Translations under genes and position numbers: made by a program
Shown: positions 493 to 61,338 of the stretch, piece by piece
Layout: each line of letters starts with the position of its first letter
Position numbering within the stretch: the first letter of the stretch is position 1
The notes under the pieces: generated by a model
Told to the model about the DNA's origin: nothing
Seen by the model: only the letters and a program-made list of their open reading frames with translations
The model's database searches: none
Source of the DNA: Candidatus Cloacimonadota bacterium
GTDB taxonomy: Bacteria; Cloacimonadota; Cloacimonadia; Cloacimonadales; Cloacimonadaceae
Reading direction: 5' to 3'
DNA length: 64,000 nt
NCBI GenBank assembly: GCA_037441405.1
Contig: JBBISI010000004.1
Coordinates: forward strand, 25,417-89,416

Positions 493-723
493 GTTATACT
501 CCTCTTGAGATTGCTGGGGTTGTTATACGAAAGTTCGTATTTCCACTTCTATCATTGGCTGTAATTGTCAAGAGCAAATACTCTTCCAATATCAGGCCTT
601 GTTTGGCGAAATTCATCAGGGGATGAGGAGTCAGAGCTATCACTGCCATTGATCTCATACTTGGATTGTCCATAACCCGTATTCAACCGGTAGGGTCGTT
701 GTCCTTCTTCACCTTCTTCCTTG

Positions 724-795
724 CTCCATAACCTTAGTATAACCTTACGACCGTAAGGTTATACTAAGGTTATACTAAGGTTATCAAGTAAGGAG
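724..795 (+). repeat. Foldback element copy 1 (2+3 array of TAAGGTTAT 9-mers, centre GACC)
   Basis: Sequence is CTCCATAACCTTAGTATAACCTTAC-GACC-GTAAGGTTATACTAAGGTTATACTAAGGTTATCAAGTAAGGAG. Arm 728-749 pairs perfectly with 752-773. It lies between the divergent GNAT and rpsO genes. Confidence 0.9.
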
Positions 796-1050
796 AAGAC
801 AAGATGGTATATATTAACCATCAGTCATGATGTAATATGATCAGGATAACCTAAGCAAAGTATTCAATAAACAAGTTACATGCAACTGTCTAACAGAATA
901 TTAGAGCGATGTGCCGCCAGTATTCCCACTAATACCCCAGATCCATGTACTGTGTATTGAGATTGGCAGGGGATAAAAAGCGAGATTGATACGACAAAAT
1001 GCTTTACAAAATTGGAGTAAGCAGAAACATGGCGCCAAAACAAGAAGGAG

Positions 1051-11167: not shown

Positions 11168-11760
11168 CGACCAAACAGATATTCATAGATAGCGCATTCA
11201 GGGAAAACTCAATCTGGAAACAGATCCTGGGGATCTGTTCCACGCTGGCGGTGACCAATCTGATGTTGAATAGTTTGATCATGGGCATCGGCGTGATCTT
11301 TTCACTCGCTTTAACCAATCTGACCATCTCCTTGCTGCGCAATTACATCCCGCGCAGCGTGAGGATGATGACGCAGACCTTGATCATCGCTTTTTACGTG
11401 ATCATCGTGGATATCTATCTCAAGGCATACCTTCCGGATATCAGCATGCAATTGGGACCTTACGTCGGTCTGATCATCACCAATTGCATCCTGATGGGGA
11501 GAGCAGAGGCATTTGCCGTCAAGAACAAGCCCTGGGATTCAGTTATCGACGGGATCGGCGCTGGATTTGGCTATACGCTTGTCCTGCTTGCCATCGCCCT
11601 GATCCGTGAGATAATGGGCTTTGGCTCCATCTTTGGTTTCACCGTTCTGGGCGACAGGTGGACCAAGTGGTCGATCATGGTGATGGCGCCCAGTGCTTTC
11701 TTAATTCTCGCCGTCTTTATCTGGATCATCAACAACAACTTTTACAAAGGCAAGGCATAG
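11164..11760 (+). CDS. RnfE/NqrD family subunit
   Basis: 198-aa polytopic membrane protein with N-terminus ...NSIWKQILGICSTLAVTN, typical of RnfE/NqrD. Confidence 0.85.
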   Translation: MTTKQIFIDSAFRENSIWKQILGICSTLAVTNLMLNSLIMGIGVIFSLALTNLTISLLRNYIPRSVRMMTQTLIIAFYVIIVDIYLKAYLPDISMQLGPYVGLIITNCILMGRAEAFAVKNKPWDSVIDGIGAGFGYTLVLLAIALIREIMGFGSIFGFTVLGDRWTKWSIMVMAPSAFLILAVFIWIINNNFYKGKA

Positions 11761-13947: not shown

Positions 13948-14214
13948 CTAATCATCATCAAATTCATCGTCCGCGTTGCCCGAATCAACGTTTCCAATCA
14001 CCCGCAGGACTGCCGTCTCTTCTTCTGAGTGGAATACGTTCCGGTAAATGAATTGGTGGATGAAAGCGAGGCCGGTCTGAATGCCGTTTCCTATGGGCAG
14101 GAACAGATGAACTTTCCGAGCGGGACCGTTGAATATGTTGGGGGTGTTATACTTAAGGTTATAAACTAACTGAGCCCTTTGCAGAGTTAACCATGGGGAG
14201 AGATGTATCTGAGA
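13948..14214 (-). pseudogene. Possible 3' remnant of an unidentified gene (no start codon)
   Basis: 88 codons are open on the minus strand with no ATG/GTG/TTG start. It ends ...GPARKVHLFLPIGNGIQTGLAFIHQFIYRNVFHSEEETAVLRVIGNVDSGNADDEFDDD then TAG at 13950-13948. The protein-like part stops where the 9-mer half-site at 14141-14165 begins. Confidence 0.3.
14141..14165 (+). repeat. Solo half-site of the foldback family
   Basis: GGGGTGTTATACTTAAGGTTATAAAC compares with the standard distal arm AAGGTTATACTAAGGTTATCAAG. An exact TAAGGTTAT sits at 14154-14162. The junction GGTTATAAACTAACT recurs at 34294-34308. Confidence 0.6.
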
Positions 14215-14228
14215 TTATGTTTAGAAAT

Positions 14229-14258
14229 TTGTCAATTTAGCCACAAAACAGGTAAAAT
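14229..14258 (+). promoter_or_regulatory. Candidate sigma70-type promoter upstream of RNA unit A
   Basis: TTGTCA (14229-14234), 18 nt, TAAAAT (14253-14258). The -10 part is deleted in the paralogous unit B. Confidence 0.3.
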
Positions 14259-14377
14259 CCTCATGAATAGCGTGAAATTTCCATTTAGCGTGCCTTTATC
14301 AAGCCATATTGAGGGAAAATCCCAGAATCTGGGCACACCTCTCTCTTTTTGCCCGACAAAATCCATTGTTATTGCGA

Positions 14378-14638
14378 CGTCGTCAGATGTTAGGGGGTTA
14401 CTTGAATCACCGTTTAAAACGCCACCATGGATCAACCCGCAAGGGTAACCGGACTTTTTGAGGACATTAGTCCGAGAGAAACCCCCTCCCGCTGGAGAAA
14501 GATCCTTCTTTTAATACCCTGGAATATTTCTCTCTCGTTCGATCTGAAGTTTTCACAATGTCCCAAAATACGGAAGGGTTATATATGCCCTCACGACCTG
14601 GAACGGTGGTTGAAACCATCGCCCAACATCTGATGACG
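14378..14638 (+). ncRNA. Candidate structured RNA, unit A (unknown class; paralog of 34339-34598)
   Basis: About 75 percent identical to unit B. A closing helix forms between CGTCGTCAGATGTTAGG (5') and CCCAACATCTGATGACG (3'). Also a CCC-GCAA-GGG hairpin at 14436-14445 and a CGTT-TAA-AACG hairpin at 14411-14421. See findings for the covariation. Confidence 0.55.
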
Positions 14639-14751
14639 CGTGATGTCGCGGGAAGGTGAATGATACTGCTTACCGATAATCTCAATCCCTGTTGATCCCA
14701 ATATGTCCAGTGGTCTCGAGCAGTAAGTTTCCTGCCAAGTATCGAATCCTC

Positions 14752-14826
14752 CCTGCTTGATAACCTTAGTATAACCTTAGTATAACCTTACAGCCGTAAG
14801 GTTATACTAAGGTTATGAAGTGAGGA
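14752..14826 (-). repeat. Foldback element copy 2 (inverted orientation, 3+2 as read on plus; centre AGCC)
   Basis: Sequence is CCTGCTTGATAACCTTAGTATAACCTTAGTATAACCTTAC-AGCC-GTAAGGTTATACTAAGGTTATGAAGTGAGG, the reverse complement of the standard arrangement. Confidence 0.9.
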
Positions 14827-14943
14827 ACAACATGGATAAATACATAACCGGATTGTTTATATGCAAGTTACAGACCGGTGGAGAATGATCTGGTTTTCAG
14901 ATCGCTATCGTCGCGGCTTTCTTTGGCGATGAATTCGTTATTA

Positions 14944-25060: not shown

Positions 25061-25254
25061 CCCTTTCCTCCAGCTGGGTGGATTTTATAGTAAAGTTGCT
25101 AACTCTTCTGATACAGTGCAATTATTATTCCCTTGAAAGACTAAAATCCATTCCGCAGGTTTTTTCTGAGTTTCGATACTGAATATGAAATGGAGACCAT
25201 GCCTGTAAAAGAATGAAAACCAACGAATGAGTGCCTGTCCGAAGAGCCTAGCAG

Positions 25255-25389
25255 ATACTGGAATCACCAATTTCTCCTTACTCCATAACCTTAGTATAAC
25301 CTTACGGTCGTAAGGTTATACTAAGGTTATACTAAGGTTATCAAGTAAGGAGGATAGTAGTTAACTACTCTGAATTATGCAAGGGTCTT
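25255..25389 (+). repeat. Foldback element copy 3, short form (core 25281-25352, centre GGTC)
   Basis: It has the left end ATACTGGAATCACCAATTTC and the right end CTCTGAATTATGCAAGGGTCTT seen in the long forms at 38.3 and 51.3 kb, but lacks their ~190-nt internal segment. Confidence 0.85.
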
Positions 25390-33925: not shown

Positions 33926-34156
33926 TTGTCTTCGAACCAATTCACTGGAGGAGAATCCCATGACCTTGCCTGGTATGAACAGAAAGCGGTGGCAGTATTG
34001 CTTGCACTGCTGTCGTTGGGATTCAAGGATATCATCGTCGGTCCGACCTTGCCCGGATTCCTCTCGACAAATGTGGCAAAAGTCATCACGGATGCCTTCG
34101 GACTACGCAAGATCACCACACCTGAAGAGGATATCAGGTTCATGATGGGCTCATAG
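33926..34156 (+). pseudogene. hcp: 3' remnant of hybrid-cluster protein (hydroxylamine reductase) gene
   Basis: Translation ...[65 protein letters not shown] plus stop matches my recollection of the conserved Hcp C-terminus. The other ~480 codons of a normal hcp are absent. An in-frame stop lies at 33914. Confidence 0.7.
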
Positions 34157-34165
34157 TTCATCATT

Positions 34166-34217
34166 AGTATAACCTTACGACTGTAAGGTTATACTAAGGT
34201 TATCAAGCAAGGGGGAC
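34166..34217 (+). repeat. Foldback element copy 4 (truncated left arm, 1+2 9-mers, centre GACT)
   Basis: Sequence is TTAGTATAACCTTAC-GACT-GTAAGGTTATACTAAGGTTATCAAGCAAGGGGG. It starts 9 nt after the hcp remnant stop. Confidence 0.85.
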
Positions 34218-34338
34218 AGTGTCGTCCAGTGGTCAAGCCAACTCTCTGACTTATTAAATAAGACCCCTGAATTATTTGGGGCATTGTTCTTTCGGTTATA
34301 AACTAACTAATTGTCAGACAAGATCCTGTATCATTGCA

Positions 34339-34598
34339 GCGTTATCAGATGTTGGGTGGTGACTTCAGTCACCGCGTCGGAACGACGCTAAAGATCTACC
34401 CGCAAGGGTATCCGGACTTTTTGAGGACTATAGTCCGAGACTAATCCCCTCTCGCTGGACAGGGATCCTTCTTTCAATGCGTGGTATATGTCCTTCGTTC
34501 GGACTGAAGTCCGCACTATGTCTAATAACCCAATAAGGTTGTATGTATTCTCACGATCCGGAACGGTGGTAAAACCACCGCCTAACATCTGATGGCGC
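34339..34598 (+). ncRNA. Candidate structured RNA, unit B (unknown class; paralog of 14378-14638)
   Basis: A 19-23 bp closing helix forms between GCGTTATCAGATGTTGGGTGG and CCGCCTAACATCTGATGGCGC, with 4 G-U pairs in plus sense. Hairpins: GGTGAC-TTCA-GTCACC; GCGTCG-GAA-CGACGC (34374-34388); CCC-GCAA-GGG (34399-34408); CGGAC-TGAA-GTCCG; GGTGG-TAAAA-CCACC. Confidence 0.6.
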
Positions 34599-34646
34599 TG
34601 GAAAACTAATTGGATTCATCTGATGCCGCTGGAAAACTTATTATAG
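34586..34646 (+). repeat. Tandem duplication of the 3' closing-strand segment of unit B
   Basis: CATCTGATGGCGCTGGAAAACTAATTGGATT (34586-34616) is followed by CATCTGATGCCGCTGGAAAACTTATTATAG (34617-34646). Confidence 0.85.
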
Positions 34647-34770
34647 TGCTTTCTTTAGCTCTCAATCTCTGATGAGCCCGTTGCATGCAATGGTCCCCGG
34701 TATCAAATACCGGTCGTTCGCCCATATTCCCCAATTGATCAGCGATCGGTATCGGCATCTGAACCACCTA

Positions 34771-37884: not shown

Positions 37885-38259
37885 CTACTTCAGCCGGTAG
37901 AGTTTGATTCTGTGGCAGAGAGTGTTTTCTGATACATTGAGAAGAATGGTTGCGTCTTTCTGTTTACCATTGCATTTGATCAAGGCATCCCGGATGATAT
38001 CCTTCTCTTGTTCTGCCAATGTGGTGGACAGGTTGTAATCCTTGGGCAGTAGTTTAGCGGAATTTTGTGCCATGGCAATGGATTTGTTGTCCCACGTTCT
38101 GAGTTCGGAGGTAATGATCAAACTCTCGATCATGTTTTTGAGTTCTCTGACATTTCCGGCAAACTCATATTGTTCCACGGCGTGATAGAACTTGTCCTCG
38201 ATGACAGGTTTTGGCTTTTTGGTCTCGGTACAGAACATCTCGACAAAATGGACGATCAA
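37885..38259 (-). pseudogene. 3' fragment of a sigma54-dependent activator (end of AAA+ domain plus Fis-type HTH only)
   Basis: The 124-aa ORF holds only ...EQYEFAGNVRELKNMIESL... and the C-terminal HTH (KQKDATILLNVSENTLCHRIKLY). Walker A/B, GAFTGA and any sensor domain are missing. Upstream sequence is replaced by repeat element copy 5, starting ~38268. Confidence 0.7.
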
Positions 38260-38267
38260 TAGTTAAG

Positions 38268-38583
38268 AGCGTTGCACATACTGGAACAGCCAAATTTCGA
38301 GAATATGAAAAAACAGTATCGTCTCTCCTTCCGGCGCAGTCAGTTACAATTAGAGGATTATGCCTGTCAGATAGTCTGAATACTCGTTGAGTCCAACGCT
38401 CTGAGTTATCTAACGGTCTCAAGAAGGTTTAGATTCAAGCGTAATAGCGCTTTCTTCTGAGTTCTCCCTGCTTAATAACCTTAGTATAACCTTACGGTCG
38501 TAAGGTTATACTAAGGTTATACTAAGGTTATCAAGCAAGGAGGATAATTTTAAGTTAACTCTCTGAATTATTCACCGGTCTTT
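38268..38583 (+). repeat. Foldback element copy 5, long form (core 38464-38544, centre GGTC)
   Basis: About 315 nt, collinear with 51301-51616 at roughly 75-80 percent identity. Layout: left end ATACTGGAAC, ~190-nt internal segment, foldback core, right end CTCTGAATTATTCACCGGTCTTT. Confidence 0.85.
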
Positions 38584-51148: not shown

Positions 51149-51300
51149 TAACATTGATTACACTATCGATTGTGATCATAGGTCCCTATCCCCGCTGCCA
51201 CCCTGCCGCTTATCTCAAAGCGACGTTATTATGTTAGTGCCGTATCTGTAGGGGCTATGCGATACTTTGGCGACGACAGATCCGTCAGCGAAATCAGAAT

Positions 51301-51616
51301 GACGTTATGCATACTGGAATCACTATATTTCGAGACCGTGAAAAAACGATATTGACTCTCTTTCTAGCGCAACTCATAACTACTGAGGATTATGTCTGGT
51401 AGGTAATTTGGATACTCGTTGATTCAACCGCTCTGAGTTATTCAACGGTCTGAAGAAGGTTTAGATTCAAGCGGTATAGTGCTTTCTCCTGAGTTCTCCC
51501 TGCTTTATAACCTTAGTATAACCTTACGTTCGTAAGGTTATACTAAGGTTATACTAAGGTTATCAAGCAAGGAGGAATAATTTTAAATCAGGTCTCTGAA
51601 TTCTTCAACGGTCTTT
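51301..51616 (+). repeat. Foldback element copy 6, long form (core 51496-51576, centre GTTC)
   Basis: Collinear with 38268-38583, including ATACTGGAATCAC, the internal segment, the core, and the right end CTCTGAATTCTTCAACGGTCTTT. Confidence 0.85.
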
Positions 51617-51830
51617 CAGATAATTCTTGTCATAAATCAGGATTTGATATTTTATGGTCTGCGATTATCGCCTGATCGGGTCGTTCAATTCATGATGCAT
51701 GTCAGAGATCTGCGATGACGCACAGTGATAATGGTAGTTAACATGACCGCAATAACATGACCAGGAATGGGAGCAATAGATGCGAAATATGGATGCGAGC
51801 GACGCCCGTAACGGCATGATAGGAGAGACC

Positions 51831-61068: not shown

Positions 61069-61088
61069 TGTTTTGCCTACTCCTGCCT

Positions 61089-61160
61089 GCTCCATAACCT
61101 TAGTATAACCTTACGGCCGTAAGGTTATACTAAGGTTATACTAAGGTTATCAAGCAAGGA
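61089..61160 (+). repeat. Foldback element copy 7 (2+3, centre GGCC)
   Basis: Sequence is CTCCATAACCTTAGTATAACCTTAC-GGCC-GTAAGGTTATACTAAGGTTATACTAAGGTTATCAAGCAAGGAG. It starts 21 nt after the lptG stop, between convergent genes. Confidence 0.9.
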
Positions 61161-61338
61161 GAAGAGTGTCGCTCTTTGTGGATACTTGCCTGATCTAATC
61201 CTCGGGTCAATCTCAAGACCGCTTCGAGTACTCGGGATAATCTCGTAGCGAGCCTGAGGAAAAAGTGGGATCAAGCATTAAGCGACCAGCCCCGGCAATG
61301 TATCCGGGGCCGGGCTGACACTGAAATATGGGTTATTC

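Follow-up and report, generated by a model that had tools for sequence, protein, structure and literature searches.

A 64,000-nucleotide stretch of a Candidatus Cloacimonadota genome (contig JBBISI010000004.1 of assembly GCA_037441405.1, positions 25,417 to 89,416; hereafter the window) carries seven copies of a palindromic element, which we call the foldback and which represents a perfect-stem palindromic repeat family of a small Cloacimonadota clade, previously undescribed in Rfam and in the literature searched. Judged from comparisons between related genomes, the foldback of the window's lineage spreads as the payload of a small transposon with terminal inverted repeats (TIRs) and a target duplication, and the hairpin outlives this vehicle, persisting at orthologous sites with an invariant inner stem and an outer stem that is kept paired. 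We interpret the foldback as a hairpin or cruciform module that was spread by a miniature inverted-repeat transposable element (MITE), is read by a sequence-specific protein and is kept by selection and/or gene conversion, an interpretation to which we give an even chance of being correct.

Anatomy of the foldback

Each arm is built from a 13-nt outer stem and then two or three tandem 11-bp units, each consisting of the 9-mer TAAGGTTAT plus AC, and the arms meet at a 4-nt centre; the spacing of the units is 11 bp. The 9-mer occurs 36 times in the window, 33 of them within the seven elements, against 0.42 expected from shuffled sequences, and the 24-nt core ATAACCTTAC-NNNN-GTAAGGTTAT occurs seven times against none expected. 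Six of the seven copies have two units in one arm and three in the other (2+3; the copy at 14752 is inverted), and the copy at 34166 is a truncated 1+2 form. The AT-rich stem is perfect and invariant in its inner sequence, the inner 21-bp arms having zero substitutions across the window copies. A 13-nt imperfect inverted repeat (TCCTCCyTGCTTs / sAAGCArGGAGGA) flanks the arms and brings a window copy to ~83 nt (e.g. 715-797), within a family range of 83-94 bp. The predicted fold is -23.6 kcal/mol as DNA (z = -8.7) and -43.7 kcal/mol as RNA (z = -9.7), and in 2+3 copies a slipped register is predicted to join the unit stem to the outer stem, placing one 9-mer in a ~17-nt loop. Further copies, extra or degenerate, were found neither by a mismatch scan of the 64 kb nor by a covariance-model search with a model built from related copies.

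The initial annotation, made from the letters of the window alone, had listed seven copies, all intergenic, with a substitution-free stem, 11-bp phasing, an imperfect outward inverted repeat and the centres GACC, AGCC, GGTC, GACT, GGTC, GTTC and GGCC (copies 1 to 7, + strand), and each of these points holds. It had also named local duplication or an assembly error as a way in which the family could prove spurious. This is excluded, since the same foldback is present in independent assemblies (NCBI metagenome-assembled genomes, or MAGs, JGI metagenomes and Logan assemblies).

Conservation at orthologous sites and maintained pairing

The foldback is known from three related lineages with a total of 100 distinct sites with complete flanks: that of the window (CAZRRS01; a protein of the window matches exactly in the Cloacimonadota MAG GCA_964602675.1, contig CAZRRS010000006.1), CAYZZE01 (GCA_964482845.1), and VGPI01 from Lake Tanganyika (GCA_016875595.1). 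The TsaD protein of CAYZZE01 is 95% identical to that of the window and those of VGPI01 are 76-77% identical; amino-acid identity between the window and CAYZZE is about 93-95%. Copies 2 and 3 of the window are also found in CAYZZE, and VGPI and CAYZZE loci that can be aligned through their coding flanks (71-85% nucleotide identity) share the intergenic position of the foldback. Over the 210 inner-stem positions of five orthologous VGPI/CAYZZE pairs there is a single difference (209 identical), whereas the 120-nt flanks on each side of the same foldbacks are 45-58% identical, with the exception of one coding flank at 80%. Because a 42-nt stem would have been lost by neutral decay since the split, the stem must have been held by selection or by homogenisation.

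Pairing is maintained as well. Among 59 unique sites of the VGPI lineage (46 distinct sequences), standard pairs make up 98.8% of the stem cells, and four outer pairs covary: 7/88 (UA in 29, CG in 10), 13/82 (GC in 34, CG in 11), 16/79 (UA in 26, CG in 13, AU in 5) and 21/74 (UA in 41, GC in 5). The observed covariation score was reached by none of 500 shuffles, collapses in slid registers and is also seen in a set of 18 copies. Three of the four covarying pairs are transversion swaps, and mismatched or wobble intermediates are almost absent. These compensated transversions suggest that folding is important, or at the least that it happens frequently enough for one arm to serve as template in correcting its partner. 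The four-gamete test finds all four combinations at every pair of covarying sites, and the variants must therefore be reshuffled among copies or arise repeatedly through a process that makes the arms symmetrical. The claim, already made from the window, that the stem reflects selection on pairing or protein recognition and not recent copying alone thus gains support both from the difference between stems and flanks and from the compensated outer stem.

The constraint differs along the stem. The two inner units of each arm are invariant, with the inner 42 nt constant and all variable, compensated positions in the outer part, which points to an inner part constrained in sequence and an outer part constrained in pairing; variation rises toward the edges of the foldback, and the outermost parts are the least conserved. 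The invariance of the inner units is partly built in by sampling with perfect 20-mers, the less biased material being the seven window copies and a loose scan of ~0.5 Mb. Most loci were collected in this way, so that degenerate copies elsewhere in these genomes may be missed; neither the 64 kb of the window nor the loci scanned contain any, and it is for the window and the neighbouring parts of the fetched loci that the sample is unbiased in this respect. An extension of the palindrome into the unique flanks, hinted at by the 18 copies, was not significant at the 59 sites, where the flanks show ~33% Watson-Crick pairing and no excess of inverted k-mers.

A MITE-like vehicle

In the window's lineage the foldback is internal to a MITE-like element of ~150-320 bp that has its own TIRs (AAGAsCGTTG...), and at least 13 copies lie within a ~340-bp composite repeat with TIR-like ends. 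The module CTCTGAATTATTCAACGGTCTT follows 21-35 nt beyond the three-unit arm in ~40% of CAYZZE and window copies, and ~25% of them also have a left part of ~210 nt starting with AAGAGCGTTGCACATA; a foldback follows each of these left ends unless the contig stops before it. The composite ends (left AAGAGCGTTGCA..., right AAGACCGTTGAA... as reverse complement) share an inverted repeat of 10 bp (AAGAsCGTTG) that extends imperfectly to ~16 bp, and they lie 210 and 45 nt from the foldback. These MITE-like elements, 148-318 bp long, contain no open reading frame (ORF).

Mobility is seen most directly between tauE and a phosphoribosyltransferase gene, an interval that reads GCGAAA-TCAG-ATAATCC without interruption in CAYZZE and GCGAAA-TCAG-(318 bp)-TCAG-ATAATTC in the window. 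By this alignment, window positions 51298-51615 are an insertion with a 4-bp target duplication, TCAG. The converse polymorphism also occurs, in that CAYZZE has a copy that starts with the terminal repeat just past rnhB and the window has none there; the search for presence/absence polymorphism and target duplications that the initial annotation had proposed has thus yielded both. Downstream of tsaD, the window and CAYZZE (locus L074) share a copy that is missing from VGPI and from loci L073 and L076. A second empty site was sought at copy 5, where the locus of the relative is rearranged and offers no clean comparison.

At L073 (~11215-11360 of JGI Ga0326310_10001075), a locus from a related species that has no foldbacks, we observed a ~140-bp MITE-like element without a foldback, whose ends, AAAACCGTTGCACAAACGGGAATGA ... 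ACGGTCTT, are those of the window's composite element. The vehicle family is therefore wider than its payload.

Variation in the centre and in arm number

The lineages differ in architecture. VGPI copies are 3+3 in 99 of 112 metagenome matches, all 46 complete CAYZZE and window copies with unequal arms (those not truncated by a contig end) are 2+3, and this difference between the lineages is found even at orthologous sites. The centre, the sole variable part of the core, is mostly G-R-Y-C with mainly transition variants. In the oriented 2+3 copies it is GGTC in 32 of 46 and the reverse complement, GACC, in 4; the strand-collapsed centres of the symmetric VGPI copies are GACC/GGTC (27), GATC (15), AACC/GGTT (7), GGCC (2) and rarer others. 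Flipped centres are found between orthologues (GACC at L020, GGTC at L032). At 36 sites recovered in several Lake Tanganyika samples none of the 144 centre columns varies, and neither does any stem column, which rules out a hypermutable or phase-variable centre. One copy in the 3+3 lineage (L109 2421, Ga0194112_10040720) is 2+2, each arm being one unit shorter, a symmetric loss that would fit a process copying changes between arms.

Two readings in the initial annotation need revision in this light. The centre, described there as free and hypervariable, is largely confined to G-R-Y-C, with mirror-image forms GACC and GGTC, and is invariant within one population. The 2+3 asymmetry, taken there as a polarity of transposase sites, gives way to 3+3 at the same sites in a sister lineage, and the foldback lies inside a MITE-like element.

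Distribution

A 20-mer scan of one genome per species found the foldback only in CAYZZE01 and VGPI01, both Cloacimonadota, besides one chance match, and a scan of the complete metagenome collection returned 110 stretches, nearly all of them Lake Tanganyika contigs of the VGPI population. The match in Patescibacteria (L029) and six metagenome matches were rejected as chance, being AT-rich or simple palindromes. There was no copy on contigs of a species in JGI sample 3300032103 that is as distant as VGPI (a 77% relative), nor on the examined contigs of related species with 66-68% TsaD identity. Viral contigs gave no match, and a phage origin was rejected on that account; a cyanobacterial origin was also discarded, HIP1 (GCGATCGC) not being enriched. 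Rfam returned no match at the gathering score and only spurious matches to miRNA hairpins far below threshold, no known RNA family or tRNA-derived element was found, and the literature searched does not describe the foldback, all in agreement with the earlier impression that it belongs to no recognised family.

The Lake Tanganyika lineage holds ~60-70 perfect copies. The suggestion of hundreds of copies per genome is thus plausible for the window's genome, at seven per 64 kb, and too high for perfect copies in the sister lineage. Many copies sit at contig ends, which indicates that the repeat breaks short-read assemblies.

A proposed folded module read by a protein

In the interpretation that we favour, the functional form would be DNA folded as a cruciform or, when single-stranded, as a hairpin, in which the phased 9-mers, two per arm on one helical face, would be read by a sequence-specific protein that might be the mobilising enzyme or a host factor. 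Uniformity would be kept by selection on recognition together with arm-to-arm correction and conversion between copies, and the last of these would account for the lineage-wide switch between 3+3 and 2+3. Invariant inner 9-mers beside a drifting loop suggest that the sequence is read, the simplest reader being a protein that touches the stem turn after turn. Symmetric drift would not be stopped by arm-to-arm correction alone, and conversion between copies, acting alone, should homogenise the loop too, so that selection on recognition seems to be needed. Conversion in turn best explains the 3+3/2+3 switch at shared sites, the linkage of centre and asymmetry, and the flipped centres of orthologues. 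It is on these grounds that we infer a binding protein and a function for the foldback.

Several points weigh against this interpretation. The target duplication comes from one clean empty-site comparison; none is obvious at the other composite copies, and the stand-alone VGPI copies have none beside their outer stems at the 59 sites. VGPI copies have nothing in common beyond the 13-nt outer stems, no recognisable active composite donor is seen in that lineage, and a past link of these copies to the MITE is conjectural. The loci contain no full-length parent insertion sequence (IS) and no inverted ends enclosing a gene, although short-read MAGs usually miss IS copies, and no binding protein or transposase was identified for the foldback. 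An RNA-level role may also exist. Finally, the invariance of the inner stem could arise from gene conversion alone, without any function, to which it may be answered that conversion should also homogenise the centre, yet the centre varies among sites.

This last point leads to the rival that survives best, a purely selfish MITE that underwent a recent burst from one master, together with gene conversion and templated arm correction, and that has no function; we consider it doubtful, though a serious possibility. Such an element would readily produce insertion polymorphism and target duplication between genomes with ~93-95% amino-acid identity, an arm architecture that is uniform throughout a lineage, and, as from a single master, a centre orientation that goes with the 2+3 asymmetry (32 against 4). 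Exchange between copies would give the four-gamete violations, and edges that vary more are expected if conversion needs flanking homology. It is harder to reconcile with a recent burst that at least five orthologous sites predate the VGPI/CAYZZE split and have perfect inner stems within flanks near saturation, that the VGPI lineage has no recognisable active donor, that the 4-nt centre differs among sites when conversion should have homogenised it, and that there is no tail of decaying copies.

We regard it as unlikely that the transcribed hairpin acts at the RNA level, whether by stabilising 3' ends, by terminating transcription, as a substrate of RNase III or by occluding translation; in the outer stem an anti-Shine-Dalgarno-like CCUCC would pair with a Shine-Dalgarno-like AAGGAGGA. 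The stability of the RNA fold, the compensated pairs and the Shine-Dalgarno-like outer stem are compatible with such roles, and the median distance from the foldback is shorter for gene 3' ends (114 nt, with 11 of 66 within 30 nt) than for gene 5' ends (212 nt, with 3 of 62 that close). The gene context is nevertheless that of the intergenic background (34 tandem, 16 convergent and 14 divergent of 64; p = 0.54), on which account a preference for convergent or 3' contexts was rejected, and copies are not biased in orientation with respect to transcription, 10 being sense and 8 antisense. The hairpin is followed by GGAGGA... and not by a T-run, whereas ordinary terminators with a GC-rich hairpin and a T-run do occur in these genomes, for example after gdh; with an AT-rich stem and no bias of orientation or context, the foldback is not an intrinsic terminator. 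Only 15 of 133 foldback ends precede any start in range of an ORF of at least 60 codons, mostly spurious-looking, and a ribosome-binding role for AAGGAGGA was dropped for this reason. The compensated changes, moreover, are transversions with very few mismatched or wobble intermediates.

That the arms are themselves transposon ends with unequal numbers of transposase sites, the foldback being a minimal two-end element or a junction of abutted ends, is in our judgement very unlikely. Phased inverted short repeats do recall the multi-site ends of Tn7, Mu and IS21, and VGPI copies share nothing beyond the foldback, which could there be the whole element. The asymmetry is lineage-specific, however, VGPI being 3+3; there is no target duplication beside the outer stems at 59 sites; the demonstrably mobile unit of the window's lineage has other termini, 210 and 45 nt away; and the outermost parts, where cleavage would fall, are the least conserved.

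Comparison with known repeat systems

A GTAG motif is typical of REP sequences, and the foldback consensus has none. The foldback otherwise resembles the REPIN/REP-BIME repeats with their RAYT genes in Pseudomonas and E. coli (PMC3116915, PMC3686654) in being intergenic, ~70-110 nt long and folded into a long hairpin, in reaching tens to hundreds of copies per genome, and in vertical inheritance, retention at orthologous sites and compensatory changes in the arms. It differs in that its arms are tandem 11-bp units and not REP palindromes, that it conserves its centre and not its distal ends, and that it travels inside a TIR-bearing vehicle that makes a target duplication. We therefore find it highly improbable that the foldback is a REPIN-type element that a REP-associated Y1 (HUH) transposase moves in the form of a single-stranded hairpin: size, hairpin, strictly intergenic dispersal, vertical persistence and compensatory changes are alike (PMC3116915) and the VGPI lineage does have a Y1_Tnp gene (Pfam E = 5.7e-26), but that gene (L130 2310-2783) is bordered on both sides by a different hairpin repeat, GGCGGTGGTTTCAACCACCGC, and not by 9-mer arms, the 1.39 Mb of loci showed no gene with foldback arms on its flanks, a conserved centre with a variable outer part is the opposite of the conserved distal REPs and variable, compensated middle of REPINs (PMC3116915), and the 4-bp target duplication of the carrier is typical of DDE-type and not of HUH-type transposition. 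The foldback thus has the inverted units forming an intergenic hairpin, and lacks a Y1 gene flanked by the same repeat and conserved distal cores.

The search behind this statement, for HUH/Y1 motifs in open stretches of at least 90 codons, covered the 1.39 Mb of loci and not whole genomes, in which a second gene is possible; its yield was a single intact IS200-like Y1 gene and a single pseudogene copy, each belonging to the VGPI lineage. Three tandem hairpin repeats of ~60 nt lie upstream of the intact gene (2010-2190) and two inverted copies downstream (2790-2950), which appears to be the classic arrangement of a RAYT with its REPs, here in Cloacimonadota. The expectation that a RAYT or IS200 partner would be flanked by the foldback's own 9-mers was accordingly disappointed.

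We also observed in the window a second non-coding repeat family of 350-600 bp, ~83% identical over 98 nt and without an Rfam match, within which the GGCGGTGGTTTCAACCACCGC hairpin repeat occurs twice. This family holds the hairpin ACGGTGGTTGAAACCAyCGCC (window 14603-14623, again near 34565), and since the same hairpin flanks the Y1 gene of the sister lineage, it is probably the true REP/REPIN of this clade.

The known bacterial MITEs include Correia in Neisseria, ERIC/IRU in enterobacteria and RUP. Like Correia, ERIC and RUP, the composite form is non-coding, 100-350 bp long and polymorphic between close relatives, with TIRs and a short target duplication (from the empty site, at one site), and like ERIC it is far more conserved in sequence than neighbouring intergenic DNA; similarity to known MITEs was sought through Rfam and the literature. 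TIRs are not a feature by which the stand-alone VGPI copies can be judged. The differences from these MITEs are that the most conserved part of the element is an internal perfect hairpin of phased subrepeats and not the terminal repeats, and that in a sister species the hairpin persists on its own at orthologous sites. In how it persists and is conserved the foldback recalls REPINs and ERIC, and it moves as a MITE does.

More distant parallels exist. Foldback (FB) transposons of Drosophila and other eukaryotes are kilobase-scale elements whose arms are the element termini; they likewise have inverted arms of short tandem subrepeats, unit numbers that differ between arms and copies, and a small central loop, whereas the arms described here are 21-32 bp long and lie inside a bacterial MITE, and no homology is implied. 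Among iteron or centromere-like arrays bound on one helical face, parC of plasmid R1 has 11-bp repeats bound by ParR, again as two sets of short repeats at a one-turn spacing of 11 bp; such arrays are direct repeats at single-copy plasmid loci, in contrast to a palindrome dispersed in ~60-200 chromosomal copies whose partner protein is only predicted. Integron attC sites, which are imperfect palindromes with R/L boxes and extrahelical bases beside gene cassettes and an integron integrase, are ruled out by stems that are perfect and invariant and by copies scattered among core genes (rpsO-pnp, tsaD, gdh, lptG), and a CRISPR array was likewise ruled out.

Coordinates, neighbouring genes and other observations

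Table 1. Foldback copies, vehicle features and other repeats, in window coordinates unless a locus is named.
Feature	Coordinates	Strand	Remarks
Foldback copy 1, 2+3, centre GACC	715..797	+	includes 13-nt outer stems; covariance model 50 bits
Degenerate TIR-like end motif TAGACAGTTGCATGTA, right of copy 1	877..892	-	3 mismatches to AAGAsCGTTGmAyATA
Foldback copy 2, inverted, centre GGCT once oriented	14747..14829	-	orthologous to CAYZZE L049; covariance model
Short 148-bp MITE-like form: left end AAGAGCCTAGCAGATA, copy 3, right end ...TGCAAGGGTCTT	25242..25389	+	
Foldback copy 3, 2+3, centre GGTC	25272..25354	+	core match, covariance model
Foldback copy 4, truncated 1+2, centre GACT	34165..34216	+	left arm cut 8 nt past stop codon of hcp fragment
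318-bp composite MITE-like element: left end AAGAGCGTTGCACATA, right end ...CACCGGTCTT	38265..38582	+	
Foldback copy 5, 2+3, centre GGTC	38462..38544	+	within composite element
Left TCAG, 4-bp target-site duplication	51294..51297	.	empty-site alignment with CAYZZE010000087
318-bp composite MITE-like element	51298..51615	+	insertion absent from close relative CAYZZE
Foldback copy 6, 2+3, centre GTTC	51494..51576	+	within composite element
Right TCAG, 4-bp target-site duplication	51616..51619	.	empty-site alignment with CAYZZE
Foldback copy 7, 2+3, centre GGCC	61081..61163	+	starts 13 nt past stop codon of lptF/G-family gene
Intact Y1 (HUH) gene	L130 2310-2783 (Ga0194125_10016401)		pseudogene copy at L093 and L136
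Second repeat family	14138-14720, 34255-34700		beside foldback copies 2 and 4
Second repeat family, elsewhere	L016 4363-4715, L006 2642-2976, L033 6190-6454		
Palindrome array	L084 89-150, L106 1672-1735, L170 50-110		metagenome contigs

The seven copies lie between a GNAT gene and rpsO-pnp, which are divergent (copy 1); convergent genes for an Fe-S oxidoreductase and an aminotransferase (copy 2); an LVIVD-repeat gene and tsaD (copy 3); an hcp remnant and a gene for a type IX secretion system protein (copy 4); the remnant of a sigma-54 activator and gdh (copy 5); tauE and the phosphoribosyltransferase gene (copy 6); and convergent genes of the lptF/G and OmpA families (copy 7).

Two of these neighbours are fragments. 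A 76-codon ORF (33926-34156, + strand) ends 8 nt before the truncated copy 4 and resembles, as we read its sequence, the C-terminal end of hybrid-cluster protein (hcp/Prismane); the related species at L073 has a gene with a Prismane Pfam match near the corresponding locus, and the ORF is probably a pseudogene remnant. An inserted cassette abutting copy 4 had been considered for a 125-aa minus-strand ORF without a Pfam match and was rejected, the opposite strand holding the putative hcp remnant. The sigma-54-dependent activator remnant (37885-38259, - strand; 124 aa) starts 6 nt from the left end of the composite element (38265) and retains only the AAA+ lid and a Fis-type helix-turn-helix, with the receiver and ATPase parts missing; the relative at L194 lacks the gene.

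Between tauE and the phosphoribosyltransferase gene, CAYZZE (L190 1400-2890) has two extra genes, one for an unknown protein of 187 aa and one of the BtpA family, where the window (51660-51710) has only ~45 bp, with the hexamer TGCGAT repeated at its bounds, which suggests that sequence was either deleted from the window or inserted in CAYZZE. The cumulative GC skew of the window rises to ~0.51 at 36-38 kb and then falls, and as gene orientation does not switch there, we do not read the turn as a replication origin or terminus. A foldback copy lies ~1 kb upstream of dnaA in CAYZZE010000010 (L026 2051-3388, 4412-4434), and the 9-mer TAAGGTTAT is unlike the DnaA box. An operator-like array of three 17-bp palindromes, TAAGGTTA-N-TAACCTTA, 23 bp apart, occurs once on each of three contigs (Table 1); it has in common with the foldback, though differently arranged, the 8-mer half-site and the ATAACCTTAC-NNNN-GTAAGGTTAT junction and scores 24-36 bits with the covariance model, a likeness that may be a coincidence or a clue to the protein family that reads the motif.

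Implications

Although undescribed in the sources searched, the foldback family is not a categorically new system. REP, ERIC and Correia repeats have been known for decades, and function, mobility and gene conversion are still argued as explanations for their conservation. The foldback offers a clean test case, in which the mobile vehicle is separable from the conserved hairpin payload, the payload is unchanged at orthologous sites after the vehicle has decayed, the constraint on sequence (inner 9-mers) and that on pairing (outer stem) separate within one stem, and at shared sites the architecture differs between two sister lineages. No family of this type had been noted before in Cloacimonadota, an uncultured phylum that matters in anoxic lakes and in anaerobic digesters. 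Tentatively, and with more doubt than confidence, we suggest that the foldback may be more than transposon debris, namely a genome-wide cis-element retained by the host at ~60-200 sites per chromosome that form cruciforms or hairpins, seeded by a MITE and kept by purifying selection across species. If so, the phased TAAGGTTAT 9-mers would be presented to a dedicated protein, here predicted, which might serve chromosome organisation, replication or repair at hairpins, or the punctuation of transcription.

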